The position numbers and the translations under genes were made by a program. Source: a virus (Duplodnaviria > Heunggongvirae > Uroviricota > Caudoviricetes). From it: a stretch of DNA of 18,288 bases. The DNA lies in the IMG/VR virus record IMGVR_UViG_2703718771_000014, one strand, 5' to 3'. The notes beneath the pieces were generated by a model. It had not been told where the DNA came from, did not search any database, and saw only the letters and a list, made by a program, of their open reading frames with translations. Shown piece by piece: positions 6,632 to 16,441 of the stretch. Each line of letters begins with the position of its first letter. Position 1 is the stretch's first letter.

Positions 6632-6802
6632 TTAAAGTTCGTGTGCCATCTGGTCTTTTTCGGCACAGATTTCACTACAATATTTTTTCATTTCCGTCGT
6701 TGGTATAACTCCACGCATGAAATGAAGTGGTCTTGTAATGATTTTGCTTTCTTCAATTTCTTTATTGCAAAGGTGATAAGCACATTTTATTTTCTTAGTC
6801 AT
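6632..6802 (-). CDS. ydaE: YdaE, small Cys-rich metal-binding protein, 56 aa (below the track cut-off; translated by hand)
   Basis: Hand translation gives [56 protein letters not shown]. Its ATG overlaps the kilR stop by 1 nt (TAATG). It matches my recollection of K-12 YdaE. Confidence 0.75.
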   Translation of the reverse strand: MTKKIKCAYHLCNKEIEESKIITRPLHFMRGVIPTTEMKKYCSEICAEKDQMAHEL

Positions 6803-7023
6803 TACCATGACTCCGCCTTTACAGGTAAACCATCACGACCGAGGAAGACTCTAATCATGCAGTCAGAAATGCATGTTTTTGTAGTCAGGCTACGAATATA
6901 AAGTTTTCGCTTTTTAATATTGTTTGCCGAGGCGATATATGTCCGACCTTCATGAAGAACATAATCGCCAGGGGTCACACACTGACGTGGTATTTCATCA
7001 GTTCCGAAGTGATGAGCAATCAT
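6802..7023 (-). CDS. kilR: KilR, FtsZ-targeting cell-division inhibitor, 73 aa
   Basis: The ATG at 7023 gives [40 protein letters not shown]..., matching my recollection of K-12 KilR. The track ORF starts 4 codons upstream. Confidence 0.85.
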
Positions 7024-7592
7024 AATTATCTCCATTTTTACAAATGAATTTTGTCGATGCGGTGCCTGGTGCCTCCAGGTGACGTTAACCAGTTAACAAT
7101 TAACGCCGGATACAGAGAATCCACCCATAACACTGTTTTTGGTTTTAACTGTTCCGCGTGCGCTTAGCCGCATTCACCGCATCACAAAATTCACTTTAAA
7201 AAGGGCGGCAGAGCAGCCACGGAGTAAAACTGATACCGCCAAACGTCACCAGAAAATTGATAACAGAGGGCGTTGCAGCGGGGTTGTCACTTAAGCGTAT
7301 GGTCAACCTGACAACCCGGTGTCCTCAATGGGGAAGGAATAACCCCGCCATACTTACCGCCGCGCCATTTCGCGGAGTGCCACAACCGGAAGCGCACGTT
7401 CGAAGAAATCTAACGACAAGCCTTCTGAGGGAAAGAGCTTCGCCGTACGCTTTCGCGTTATGCCCTGACTTTTCAGGGAAATATCCTTTCAGTAAACTGT
7501 CAGTACCGGATTCTTATCCGTGTCCGGCGCACGACCACACGTGACAGCGTGTTGGTCTCCATTTTTAACCCAGAACCTCAATGGAGGATAAA

Positions 7593-7802
7593 ATGCCAAA
7601 CAAAAAAAGAAATCCGCTTATTGAAAAACAGATTGAATGCCTGGTAAATCAACTCAGGCAATCAGGGTTATTAAAAACTCATTCAGAGTTGAGGCTCACA
7701 GAATCAGCATTCGACGATAAATTAAATAATGTCCTTTATAATGGCATTATTGATTTTAATCGTTCTGTTGGTCGCCGCGGCCCTGCTGGTGTTTCCTTAT
7801 AA
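7593..7802 (+). CDS. Hypothetical 69-aa protein, convergent with the 212-aa gene
   Basis: The ATG at 7593 is preceded by GGAGGA at 5-nt spacing. The stop codon (7800..7802) abuts the stop of the minus-strand gene (7803..7805). The gene looks AT-rich by eye. No family recognised. Confidence 0.45.
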   Translation: MPNKKRNPLIEKQIECLVNQLRQSGLLKTHSELRLTESAFDDKLNNVLYNGIIDFNRSVGRRGPAGVSL

Positions 7803-8441
7803 TTACCAGTCAATCCAGAGTGGACCGTGTTCAGCGTAAATATAACTGTACACATCCAGATTATATTTGTGGTCTGTTAAGAACAGGCCGCAAATACATG
7901 CCGAAGCTTCCAGTGCAGCGGCTCTGTTACTGAATAACCATGTAGCAACATTCCAGCGTTTTTCTGCATCCCAGTCTTTCTCAAGGCCTGATACCATGAA
8001 GAAACCGTTAGTGTTGCCATCAAATAATTCTGTTTCCAAATTTTTAAGCAATGCCTGATGGACTCTTGCCAGGTATTCCGCCGGAATTTCGCCACGAATT
8101 CTGATGAGATTGTCATAAACAAACATGTTCCCCGCATATGGCGATTTTTCTTTCTTGTTTTTTAAACCAGCATCATGAGCAAACTGATCAATTTCTTCTT
8201 CCGTTGGTTTCGTATTGATGTTTTGCGCTGTCGTTTCTGCAATTTTATTTGCCACACTCTCTGAGTCGTGTTTATTTATAGACGCACAGAAATACAATCC
8301 GGTAAACGCATCGCGCACATTACGAGCCATATTATCAGTGTCTTTTTTCGTTACCGATTCCAATTCAAGTTCGTTCAGACGATGACGAAGTGTGTGTGCT
8401 GCAATCTCCTGGATTGAAGGAGGTAAATCTTTAAATTCCAT
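7803..8441 (-). CDS. Hypothetical 212-aa protein with no recognisable family; downstream gene of the repressor-adjacent module
   Basis: Track ORF 7803..8453. The ATG at 8441 (MEFKDLPPS...) is preceded by GAGG at about 8 nt. There is an 11-nt gap to the upstream small gene. I see no Walker A motif, no predicted transmembrane segment and no familiar nuclease motif. Confidence 0.7.
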   Translation of the reverse strand: MEFKDLPPSIQEIAAHTLRHRLNELELESVTKKDTDNMARNVRDAFTGLYFCASINKHDSESVANKIAETTAQNINTKPTEEEIDQFAHDAGLKNKKEKSPYAGNMFVYDNLIRIRGEIPAEYLARVHQALLKNLETELFDGNTNGFFMVSGLEKDWDAEKRWNVATWLFSNRAAALEASACICGLFLTDHKYNLDVYSYIYAEHGPLWIDW

Positions 8442-8452
8442 CGTCAACCTCA

Positions 8453-8605
8453 TTAGTCGGAGTTTCTTGCTAACCAGCGATGCGCGCCAGCTTCGGTTTT
8501 AAACGATTTGCTTTTGGTATACGTCATGGCGGTGAATGTGCCGTCCTGATTGGGAAACACGCCACATACCAGAGATTCGTTGTTGCCAAGATCGATAGTA
8601 TCCAT
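8453..8605 (-). CDS. Small 50-aa protein (possibly YdaG/YdaF-like), first gene of the module
   Basis: The track ORF starts at a TTG at 8668. The internal ATG at 8605 is preceded by GAGG at 7 nt and gives MDTIDLGNNESLVCGVFPNQDGTFTAMTYTKSKSFKTEAGAHRWLARNSD. Confidence 0.55.
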   Translation of the reverse strand: MDTIDLGNNESLVCGVFPNQDGTFTAMTYTKSKSFKTEAGAHRWLARNSD

Positions 8606-8785
8606 GTTGACCTCATTTCCCCTTAACGCCGGGTGGCGGAACGTTTTATCTACTGCGCTTTGTATCAATCAACAACTGCCGTCATGTTCGTATGCCTCAG
8701 GCTGGCTACTTAGCCCTGTTCAGTGGCTGGATAACTCGAGGTATTGTCCAGCCGTTCTCTGGTGGGGCGTTGTTTGGATATGCTT

Positions 8786-8814
8786 ATTAAACACAATGCG
8801 TTTTCTTATGTCAA
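8786..8814 (-). promoter_or_regulatory. Sigma70-type promoter for the module (TTGACA-17-TTTAAT on the minus strand), flanked by operator-like AACAC-N5-GTGTT sites
   Basis: Minus-strand read: cgtgTTGACAtaagaaaacgcattgtgTTTAATaagc. Operator-like site B (8813..8827) overlaps the -35 edge and site C (8790..8804, one mismatch) overlaps the -10. Confidence 0.55.
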
Positions 8815-8855
8815 CACGAAATGTGTTTTGTGGTGGGTGTCATATGATGATGGTA

Positions 8856-8880
8856 CAAAAAAGCCCGCTGATAGCGGGCT
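8856..8880 (-). terminator. Intrinsic terminator downstream of the repressor gene
   Basis: On the minus strand: AGCCCGC-TATCA-GCGGGCT followed by TTTTTTG, placed 30 nt after the repressor stop. Confidence 0.7.
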
Positions 8881-8910: not shown

Positions 8911-9330
8911 TTACTCCGGTGGGGGATTATCTTTAAGCCTGCCTCTCAAATATTTTTCTACATACTCATCGATTTCTTTTAGCCGGACTTCAAATAGCTC
9001 AATCATTCGTTGTTGTTCTGAGCCAGGTAGCTGGTTAAACAACTCAAGAAGTTTTCGTTGGGATTCATTTAACCACAATTCAGAAGATTCCTGTTCTCCA
9101 AATAGGAGCTCAGGAGGAGATATGCCAAGTGCCTTTCCCAATACGACAGCGTCATGCACTCCAACATTTCTGCTGCCCGCCTCATAGTTACCTATACGCG
9201 ATTGCGTCCATCCGCAGATTTCAGCAAGTTTTCCTTGAGATAAACCAAGCTTCTGCCTGCGCTCTTTAAGACGCATTGCAATTTTGTCATTGAGCCTACT
9301 AGCGGCAATTTTTTCGTTTTCTTTTTCCAT
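8911..9330 (-). CDS. Prophage repressor, XRE-family HTH (CI/RacR analogue), 139 aa, no S24 peptidase domain
   Basis: Track ORF with an HTH segment (LGLSQGKLAEICGWTQSRIGNYEAG). It is divergent from the Cro-like gene across a 96-bp region carrying palindromes, followed by its own terminator. It is too short to carry a LexA-like autocleavage domain. Confidence 0.85.
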   Translation of the reverse strand: MEKENEKIAASRLNDKIAMRLKERRQKLGLSQGKLAEICGWTQSRIGNYEAGSRNVGVHDAVVLGKALGISPPELLFGEQESSELWLNESQRKLLELFNQLPGSEQQRMIELFEVRLKEIDEYVEKYLRGRLKDNPPPE

Positions 9331-9426
9331 TGCATCCTTGTATCACGAATCGTGATTTACATAAAACACAAAACAGATTGACCATATAACACAAGGTGTG
9401 TTTAAAATTGTCATCGGAGGTTTTCA
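9331..9426. promoter_or_regulatory. Divergent immunity control region with two distinct palindromes and a candidate Cro-side promoter
   Basis: Perfect 7-1-7 palindrome ATCACGA-A-TCGTGAT at 9342..9356. AACAC-aaggt-GTGTT at 9388..9402. Plus-strand TTGACC (9378..9383), 17-nt spacer, TTTAAA (9401..9406), then GGAGG (9416..9420) and the ATG at 9427. Confidence 0.6.
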
Positions 9427-13771: not shown

Positions 13772-14016
13772 ATTCATTACGATATGGGAATTCCCATATC
13801 GGGTAAAAACGGTTTGCGGTAAAGCGAGAGTTAAGTAGAATTGCTGCGGGTGCTTGAGGCTATCTGCCTCGGGCATGAACACCAACGGCAGATAGAGAAA
13901 AGCCCCAGTTAACATTACGCGTCCGGCAAGACGCTTAACATTAATCTGAGGCCATATCTATGCTCTACACACGTAGGTTAGCCTCTTACGTGCCGAAAGG
14001 CAAGGAGAAGCAGGCT

Positions 14017-14172
14017 ATGAAGCAGCAAAAGGCGATGCTAATCGCCCTGATCGTCATCTGTTTAACCGTCATTGTGACGGCACTGGTAACGAGGAAAGAC
14101 CTCTGCGAGGTACGAATCCGAACCGGCCAGACGGAGGTCGCTGTCTTCACAGCTTACGAACCTGAGGAGTAA
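14017..14172 (+). CDS. hokD: Hok/Gef-family type I toxin (HokD/RelF), 51 aa
   Basis: AGGAG lies 8 nt upstream of the ATG. The translation MKQQKAMLIALIVICLTVIVTALVTRKDLCEVRIRTGQTEVAVFTAYEPEE matches my recollection of K-12 HokD. The track ORF begins at an in-frame ATG at 13960. Confidence 0.9.
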   Translation: MKQQKAMLIALIVICLTVIVTALVTRKDLCEVRIRTGQTEVAVFTAYEPEE

Positions 14173-16171: not shown

Positions 16172-16197
16172 CTCAATCTGTTATCCGGGGCTATATT
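16168..16197 (+). promoter_or_regulatory. Late promoter candidate (PR'-like): TTGACT-18-TATATT
   Basis: TTGACT at 16168..16173 overlaps the Q-like stop codon. TATATT at 16192..16197. A hairpin (CGCCAG-caaaat-CTGGCG) lies just downstream. Confidence 0.6.
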
Positions 16198-16258
16198 CCT
16201 CACGCGCCAGCAAAATCTGGCGTCGGGATTGGAACCCCGGATAGAGACCGCGACAGAC

Positions 16259-16280
16259 ACACGCCGCGAGCGTGTTTTTT
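16259..16280 (+). terminator. Intrinsic terminator (tR'-like) about 70 nt downstream of the late promoter
   Basis: ACACGC-CGCGA-GCGTGT followed by TTTTTT. Confidence 0.7.
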
Positions 16281-16441
16281 ATTGTCGTATGCACGCGCAC
16301 ATCTGAATTATGGTGGGGCGCATGGGGGAGCTGAAAAGCTCGCCGGTCGGTTTCCCGGTAGTTCCAACCCTGTGCGTCTCACCACCCGATGATTGGAACC
16401 TGACGGTGGTGATAGTTTAGAAACCACCAGAGGGCGTCATT

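Follow-up and report, generated by a model that had tools for sequence, protein, structure and literature searches.

The DNA described here, a stretch of 18,288 nucleotides (the window) from the IMG/VR virus record IMGVR_UViG_2703718771_000014, is a Rac/Qin-type lambdoid prophage, the integration site of which adjoins ttcA. Over the stretch tested, it is 99.9% identical to prophages of Escherichia coli O145 and O157:H7. Its genes are arranged in RefSeq in the order int-xis-ralR-recT-recE-racC-ydaE-kil-(dicB remnant)-[69 aa]-[212 aa]-DUF1391-repressor-cro-ydaT-ydaU-ydaV. The region of interest, positions 7803-8880, contains on the minus strand the terminator of the immunity repressor gene, a promoter, a leader and two open reading frames (ORFs) of 50 and 212 amino acids; a third ORF, of 69 amino acids, converges on it from the opposite strand. 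A preliminary description had presented the 50- and 212-amino-acid genes as a self-contained module expressed in the lysogen, possibly an exclusion or defence system comparable to lambda rexAB. The elements it listed were all found where it had placed them: the terminator, the promoter TTGACA-17-TTTAAT, the leader of about 173 nucleotides, both ORFs with their GAGG Shine-Dalgarno sequences and the 11-nucleotide gap between them. RefSeq gives the two ORFs the same boundaries.

The immunity repressor gene (8911-9330, minus strand) encodes a DicA-like protein of 139 residues, with a helix-turn-helix domain (Pfam HTH_3, 4.7e-13) and no peptidase domain. It is 29% identical to DicA over 129 residues (E = 2e-15) and scores 57 bits against the NCBIfam model of the DicA subfamily, under the cut-off of 101; no similarity to RacR was found. 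The stop codon at 8911 is followed, on the same strand, by an intrinsic terminator (8852-8880), made up of a stem running from 8880 to 8862 (eight base pairs, six of them G-C) and a T-run. Next comes the early-left promoter TTGACA-17-TTTAAT (8786-8814, minus strand), read directly from the sequence, with the -35 hexamer at 8814-8809 and the -10 hexamer at 8791-8786. It points away from the repressor gene, which is the position of a PL-type promoter. Lambda rexAB occupies the interval from cI to PL and shares the cI transcript. In the window, the repressor stop codon and the -35 hexamer are separated by nothing but the terminator, and the proposed equivalence to the rexAB slot therefore fails: after the repressor gene come the terminator and a promoter flanked by operators, and the genes in question are located downstream of this PL equivalent. 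The resemblance is limited to the presence of accessory genes near an immunity region, with sieB in the equivalent convergent slot of Rac. Neither Rex nor SieB has sequence similarity to the window proteins (Pfam, PADLOC). The true rexAB-like slot, empty in the window, is occupied in one E. coli prophage (L006, 4711-5189) by a RelE/RelB toxin-antitoxin pair, inserted after the repressor gene and ahead of the early-left promoter region.

Two palindromes of the OL type cover the promoter. The first, AACACGAAATGTGTT (8813-8827), is an exact AACAC-N5-GTGTT palindrome that abuts and overlaps the -35 hexamer, while the second (approximately 8789-8804) has one mismatch and overlaps the -10 hexamer. 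The 15-base-pair pattern AACAC-N5-GTGTT is present in two exact copies in the 18.3 kb, against 0.01 expected, and when one mismatch is allowed a single additional site appears in the window, the one at the -10 hexamer. The other exact copy, AACACAAGGTGTGTT (9388-9402), belongs to an OR-type operator set located between the repressor and cro-like genes (9342-9402), so that the operators lying over the early-left promoter and the PR/PRM operators of the window phage are of one type. This set also contains ATCACGAATCGTGAT (9342-9356), a related perfect palindrome two mismatches away from the AACAC-N5-GTGTT type, and a half-matching site at about 9365-9379. The centres of the three sites are about 23 base pairs apart (spacing and middle site by direct reading of the sequence). 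Two perfect palindromes and one half-match, they recall the tripartite OR of lambda. Since the palindromes overlap the promoter and recur at the repressor and cro promoters, the early-left promoter should be off in the lysogen; from this pattern, and by analogy with Qin, we infer that the DicA-like repressor would silence it in a lysogen of the window phage.

When the window is superposed on the Rac prophage of E. coli K-12, the promoter aligns position for position with the Rac sequence TTGACA-17-TATAGT. The two also share the conserved leader, the DUF1391 gene, the downstream genes kil-ydaE-racC-recE and the presence of an opposite-strand gene whose 3' end meets the early genes. The repressor and its operators differ: Rac has RacR, and its promoter is flanked by TAGGC..GCCTA palindromes, which recur in the racR-ydaS region of Rac itself. 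Such a pattern, with operators that vary along with the repressor around an unchanged promoter position and leader, is the mark of an immunity-controlled PL. The convergent gene is also a different one, being sieB (162 amino acids) in Rac K-12 instead of the 69-amino-acid ORF, and Rac K-12 contains no protein with the amino-terminal head of the 212-amino-acid protein.

The conserved early-left leader (8606-8779, minus strand, about 173 nucleotides) extends up to the ATG at 8605. Its core, at approximately 8684-8760 on the minus strand (GGaCAATACyTCGAGTTAyCC...CTAAGTAGCCAGCCyGAGGCrTAyGAACATGACGG), keeps its primary sequence across different repressor and operator types, namely those of Rac K-12, phage Tritos and vB_EcoS-666R9. 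The early leaders of two T7-like phages, a Klebsiella Berlinvirus (OY978816, 4225-4295) and Citrobacter phage YSYH, are around 80% identical to it over 66-71 nucleotides. The leader has no match in Rfam, and neither a supported consensus structure nor covariation was found for it. The idea of an antiterminator leader of the put or nut type was set aside on these grounds, HK022 also being absent among the phages with similar leaders. Possible roles of the core are processing by RNase III or RNase E and engagement of the host RNA polymerase.

On the minus strand, 3' of the 212-amino-acid gene and the convergent ORF (together treated as a cassette below), the window carries DicF, the dicB remnant, kil, ydaE, racC, recE, recT and ralR. 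The small RNA DicF and its terminator (7203-7254, minus strand) match Rfam RF00039 over the full length (75 bits, E = 2.9e-15). The preceding dicF-precursor region (7255-7545, minus strand), which forms the downstream boundary of the swapped cassette, is near-identical to the ydfC-dicF spacer of Qin. Intact dicB is absent; RefSeq annotates an 84-nucleotide pseudogene fragment at approximately 7050-7133, which is fused directly upstream of a Rac-type kil gene (6802-7023, minus strand). Judged by its gene content, the early-left operon of the window is a Qin/Rac hybrid in which DicF is kept and DicB lost. In K-12, the order in Qin is dicA, ydfA (DUF1391), ydfB, ydfC, dicF, dicB, ydfD, and in Rac it is racR, ydaG, ydaF (DUF1391), convergent sieB, kilS, kilR. 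Given DicF and the early genes downstream on the minus strand, in a layout like those of Qin and Rac, we identify the region 7803-8880 as the 5' end of the early-left operon.

The likeness to the Qin dicBF operon is close. Both operons lie directly downstream of a short DicA-like repressor gene with an operator-flanked promoter, both begin with ydfA and both have the dicF precursor and DicF downstream on the same strand. They differ in that ydfB and ydfC are replaced in the window by the 212-amino-acid gene and the convergent 69-amino-acid gene, that only a remnant of dicB is left and the operon runs on into the Rac-type kil-ydaE-racC-recET genes, and that the repressor is diverged from DicA and the operators are different. 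The Qin promoter, dicBp, has been described as analogous to lambda PL; DicA represses it 22-fold, and its polycistronic transcript starts upstream of ydfA and is processed to yield DicF (PMC10448788). Repression in Qin is leaky, with ydfA transcripts and DicF present in stationary phase (PMC10448788). The framework of the operon is thus of the known lambda PL/Qin dicBF type, and the claim of a lysogen-expressed defence hot spot is to be dropped.

The first gene of the operon (8453-8605, minus strand) encodes a 50-residue homologue of YdfA and YdaF, preceded by a GAGG Shine-Dalgarno sequence and belonging to phrog_751. It matches the DUF1391 family (PF07151) with an E-value of 2.9e-29 and 100.9 bits, against a gathering cut-off of 27.3, and is 90% identical to YdfA of Qin. 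The statement that neither protein belonged to a recognisable family therefore holds for the 212-amino-acid protein, for which Pfam, NCBIfam and PADLOC are blank, and not for this one. A literature search on DUF1391, Ybl81, the protein accessions and the phrog families returned nothing functional, and one on defence hot spots of lambdoid phages brought up no pertinent work. DUF1391 is invariant, the genes downstream of it vary widely between prophages, and it is absent from the Salmonella loci described below. Being invariant next to many different downstream genes, the DUF1391 gene is not the cognate partner of the 212-amino-acid gene; it is the conserved first gene of the operon, and the 212-amino-acid gene co-varies with the 69-amino-acid ORF, outside the interval that had been considered as a module.

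These results bear on the model from which the description started, in which the DUF1391 and 212-amino-acid genes form an exclusion, abortive-infection or toxin-antitoxin operon read from a constitutive prophage promoter. The -35 hexamer is perfect, the promoter is located beside the repressor gene, low-level and stationary-phase transcription of the Qin operon is documented (PMC10448788), and the slot is variable, all as that model would have it. Operators, however, lie over both promoter hexamers, and the homologous promoter is repressed by DicA, which argues against the expression in the lysogen that had been assumed. No defence system could be recognised either: none of the three proteins has a significant match in PADLOC-DB 2.0, the only one for the 50-amino-acid protein being an insignificant match to AbiEi (E = 0.016). 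In Salmonella, moreover, the carboxy-terminal domain of the 212-amino-acid protein is encoded directly after Cox, where there is no DUF1391. With the operators overlapping the promoter, a non-cognate DUF1391 and no significant defence model, we rank this model lowest and consider it very improbable.

The 212-amino-acid gene (7803-8441, minus strand; phrog_2151) follows the 50-amino-acid ORF with its own GAGG Shine-Dalgarno sequence. As all homologues begin with MEFKDLP, its start is at 8441 and not at the upstream ATG at 8453. Residues 1 to approximately 51 form a two-helix head (MEFKDLP...NVRDAF.GLY), which is common to dozens of small prophage proteins of 54-201 amino acids; after GLY, the sequences diverge fully. 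Residues from about 98 to 212 form a domain with the order beta-beta-alpha-beta-beta-alpha-beta. This domain is limited to the E. coli 212-amino-acid family and to Salmonella proteins of 206-286 amino acids that have a different amino-terminus. An exhaustive HMMER search of 1.84 billion representative proteins gave only 35 related clusters, all of enterobacterial prophage proteins, the 286-amino-acid Salmonella variant among them. When a profile of the carboxy-terminal domain was run against 5.8 billion non-redundant sequences, after word prefiltering, only the E. coli family and Salmonella proteins of 206-220 amino acids were retrieved. The protein has no match in Pfam, NCBIfam or PADLOC (E <= 1) and, as previously stated, lacks a Walker A motif and a transmembrane segment, the highest 19-residue Kyte-Doolittle mean being 1.16. 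The only match in a sequence-profile search of the PDB, to a fragment of Noc, had an E-value of 0.04 and was taken as noise.

The convergent ORF (7593-7802, plus strand; phrog_4274) is annotated in RefSeq and preceded by a GGAGG Shine-Dalgarno sequence. It encodes a basic protein of 69 amino acids that ends in GRRGPAGVSL, and its stop codon abuts that of the 212-amino-acid gene. The protein has no membrane segment, no Pfam or NCBIfam family and no PADLOC model at E <= 1. In PHROGs, both cassette proteins fall only into families without an assigned function. Upstream of the ORF, a weak candidate promoter, TTTTCA-17-TAAACT (7470-7498, plus strand), was read from the sequence; it agrees with the consensus at 8 of 12 positions and does not vary between cassette types. 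No terminator separates the two genes, whose 3' ends abut or overlap; transcription of both would necessarily give transcripts that overlap as antisense RNAs. The calculated isoelectric points, 5.2 for the 212-amino-acid protein and 9.7 for the 69-amino-acid protein, make their charges complementary.

The slot between DUF1391 and the DicF precursor was compared across prophages, and the 212-amino-acid gene indeed sits in a variable slot. In Qin K-12 the slot contains ydfB and ydfC, and in Rac K-12 the convergent sieB. The other occupants consist of a large gene with the shared head and a convergent small ORF: the 212-amino-acid gene with the 69-amino-acid ORF in the window (type A), a 112-amino-acid head protein with a 64-amino-acid ORF in O104:H4 (type B), a 179-amino-acid head protein with an 80-amino-acid ORF containing CxxC...CPEH in prophage L018 (type C) and a 201-amino-acid head protein with a 63-amino-acid ORF in L020 (type D). 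At least four cassette types thus exchange the carboxy-terminus and the small ORF together. The small ORFs are mutually unrelated, and all belong to PHROGs without an assigned function. Conservation of the DNA stops at about codon 51 of the large gene and, in types A, B and C, resumes exactly at the Shine-Dalgarno sequence and ATG of the small gene (CTCAATGGAGGATAAAATG); about 120 nucleotides upstream of the latter are also common to type D and to Qin. The swapped unit is thus the carboxy-terminus of the large protein plus the body of the small one, framed on both strands by conserved expression signals. Its base composition does not mark the cassette as foreign. A shared amino-terminal head with unrelated carboxy-termini, next to a small gene that co-varies with the carboxy-terminus, is what is found in effector/immunity cassettes, and by this comparison the anatomy of the slot matches that of polymorphic effector/immunity loci. 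The kind of operon, a Rac/Qin-hybrid early-left operon of the dicBF type, is already known; the cassette fits no described family.

The association of the two cassette genes is not restricted to one immunity type. The 69-amino-acid ORF is present in every examined E. coli locus with a full 212-amino-acid gene, next to four different repressor types. Among 5426 complete E. coli genomes, 568 (about 10%) carry the pair, concentrated in Shiga-toxin-producing lineages (O157:H7, O145, O121, O111 and O26); a coverage of 80% or more of the 212-amino-acid gene is found in the same 568 genomes as a coverage of 80% or more of the two-gene stretch. Certain Salmonella prophages have an integrase, a P2-type repressor and Cox. 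Directly after Cox, they encode the same carboxy-terminal domain (about 30% identity) behind another amino-terminus, and a homologue of the small ORF (42-53% identity) comes next, again convergent and overlapping. Five such loci, with three protein variants, were found. Between the small ORFs of the window and of one of these loci (L008), synonymous sites are saturated (proportions of synonymous and non-synonymous differences, pS and pN, 0.89 and 0.35; 28/18/50 differences by codon position). In the comparison with a more similar E. coli copy, the ratio of non-synonymous to synonymous substitution rates (dN/dS) comes to about 0.28 in the small ORF and 0.24 in the large one, indicative of purifying selection on both. 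Purifying selection, together with pairing between unrelated flanks, means that both are real genes that travel together.

If the 69- and 212-amino-acid genes were mere neighbours, co-carried by recombination in the conserved flanks, each would act alone or be dispensable. The junctions do lie in conserved DNA on both sides, so anything between them would be co-inherited, and no family membership offers functional information on either protein. The pair nevertheless persists at 30-50% protein identity with synonymous sites saturated, is kept in unrelated flanks that have none of the E. coli junctions (Cox upstream, another downstream region, another head), and is under purifying selection in both members. 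A lack of functional connection is, on these grounds, improbable.

Two further features of the Salmonella loci were noted. The largest variant, P0139 (286 amino acids, at 5001-5861 in L012/L013), has an XRE-type HTH_3 domain between the head and the carboxy-terminal domain (26.2 bits, cut-off 23). Its gene retains a convergent small ORF as partner, which hints at a DNA-binding version of the module. A short element with a CCGGA/TCCGG inverted repeat, ACCGGATnCTTAnCnGTGTCCGGCGCAC, located at the start of the DicF-precursor region in the window (7508-7533), is also kept beside the small ORF in the Salmonella prophages with P2-like immunity regions (approximately 6870-6900 in L008). Rfam detects no DicF in the Salmonella prophages that carry this element.

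Taken over the locus as a whole, the balance of the evidence is somewhat in favour of regarding 7803-8880 as the 5' end of a repressor-silenced early-left operon, equivalent to those read from lambda PL and Qin dicBp, and not as lysogen-expressed cargo, with the 212- and 69-amino-acid genes forming a mobile polymorphic cassette of a putative effector and its putative inhibitor. The suggestion of a toxin with a small partner survives in part: an effector with a small partner continues to be a reasonable reading, while the partner would be the convergent 69-amino-acid ORF, not the 50-amino-acid one. The pair does not have the form of a type II toxin-antitoxin system, as its genes are convergent and neither protein belongs to a Pfam or NCBIfam family.

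In structure prediction, the model of the full-length 212-amino-acid protein is weak (predicted local distance difference test score, pLDDT, of 65.7), while that of the carboxy-terminal domain is acceptable (pLDDT of 77 and predicted template modelling score of 0.73). The best fold matches of the predicted domain are ACT domains and the oligomerisation domain of ArgR. No known toxin fold was found in the structure searches with this domain. The top matches in BFVD, with a template modelling score of 0.42, were labelled cysteine protease (Prp/YsxB-like); this candidate was rejected, as no Cys or His is invariant across the family. Neither the 50- nor the 69-amino-acid protein gave anything significant against solved structures.

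The fold matches raise an alternative, in which the pair is part of the regulation of the lysis-lysogeny switch, with an ACT/ArgR-like domain serving for oligomerisation or partner binding on varied output heads and the small protein acting as modulator. The bona fide HTH_3 inserted in Salmonella P0139 would suit this, as would the location of the gene, which always follows the immunity switch at a distance of one or two genes, behind DUF1391 or Cox. The E. coli 212-amino-acid form, however, has no DNA-binding domain (Pfam), and several unrelated carboxy-termini, each with its own small ORF, are better explained by diversification of effectors and immunity proteins. We regard a regulatory pair as unlikely.

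For the cassette as effector and inhibitor, the following sequence of events is envisaged. In the lysogen, the 139-amino-acid DicA-like repressor would bind the two AACAC-N5-GTGTT operators over the -35 and -10 hexamers and keep the operon largely off. The 69-amino-acid gene would probably be transcribed independently at this stage. Upon derepression, the transcript would cross the 173-nucleotide leader, ydfA (DUF1391) and the 212-amino-acid gene, then run antisense over the 69-amino-acid gene and on to the DicF precursor, the DicB remnant, kil, ydaE, racC and recET, and this converging early transcription would shut the small gene down. The 212-amino-acid protein may be an inducible early-lytic effector or a host-directed factor, and the basic 69-amino-acid protein may bind its carboxy-terminal domain as the cognate inhibitor or antidote. 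Extended to the whole group, the proposal would be that undescribed polymorphic two-gene cassettes are built into the first genes of a repressor-controlled early operon, both in lambdoid prophages of the dicBF type in Escherichia and in Salmonella prophages whose immunity regions are P2-like. Each would consist of an inducible effector with a variable carboxy-terminus and a convergent, cognate small protein, made in the lysogen and silenced by converging transcription. It would act in host takeover, prophage addiction or inter-phage competition, as a switch of the colicin-like effector/immunity kind or of the exclusion/antidote kind. We put this general scheme forward tentatively, as a possibility.

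Several observations weigh against the account of the operon and cassette favoured here. The early-left site at 8786-8814 is passed over by the consensus promoter scanner, as position 2 of its -10 hexamer (TTTAAT) is not the consensus A. For the 69-amino-acid gene no consensus-grade promoter was found, the sole candidate being the site that agrees at 8 of 12 positions. The DNA at 7470-7498 may be conserved owing to the dicF precursor on the other strand. The head-domain proteins of Shiga-toxin phages come from other places in the early operon, where no convergent partner accompanies them. No expression data were found for the prophage genes of enterohaemorrhagic E. coli, and, by analogy with Qin, where DicA-type repression is leaky, some expression of the operon in the lysogen is possible.

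The roles of the two proteins might also be reversed. The 69-amino-acid protein would then be an exclusion or abortive-infection factor expressed in the lysogen, and the 212-amino-acid protein the phage's own antidote, made only in lytic growth, in the way that P22 and lambda have Esc against SieB. Superinfection exclusion is the function of sieB, which converges on the ydaF/DUF1391 gene, with overlapping 3' ends, in Rac K-12 and phage 666R9; the 69-amino-acid ORF is located outside the repressed operon and opposed by it, and the pair is conserved as a unit. Unlike SieB, the 69-amino-acid protein is soluble and basic and has no membrane segment. It is also without a PADLOC match at E <= 1, the scanner found no good promoter for its gene, and the larger, more complex partner, with its polymorphic carboxy-terminus, looks more effector-like. 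Reversed roles are the least unlikely of the alternatives, although still unlikely. The logic of the cassette resembles that of both the effector/immunity and the SieB/Esc families, a resemblance that falls short of established membership in either.

Among known systems, the proposed effector-and-inhibitor arrangement recalls colicins and polymorphic toxin-immunity loci. In the operons of pore-forming colicins, the immunity gene is located on the opposite strand to the repressor-controlled colicin gene. The window cassette would correspond to these in having an inducible large gene with a conserved amino-terminus and a swappable carboxy-terminus, and a small opposite-strand gene that abuts its 3' end and co-varies with the carboxy-terminus. 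It differs in having no recognisable toxin or immunity domain, no secretion or lysis functions and a phage early operon as its setting, and the comparison is one of gene arrangement alone. The interest that remains is that of an uncharacterised pair of unusual anatomy, common in Shiga-toxin-producing E. coli, with the same pairing in two unrelated immunity architectures. If the two proteins are indeed an effector and its inhibitor, they would represent a new class of module tied to the induction switch, with a possible role in host takeover, addiction or inter-phage exclusion, and would illustrate, in a form that is simple and testable, how convergent transcription can control genes in prophages.

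Elsewhere in the window, Rfam matches are located at 1557-1735, 13848-14022 and 16191-16389. They correspond to the RalA antitoxin RNA, adjoining ralR, to sok of the hok/sok type I toxin-antitoxin system and to IsrK and the C4 antisense RNA with its a1/b1 targets. The region with IsrK, C4 and the a1/b1 targets is that of late-gene antitermination control.

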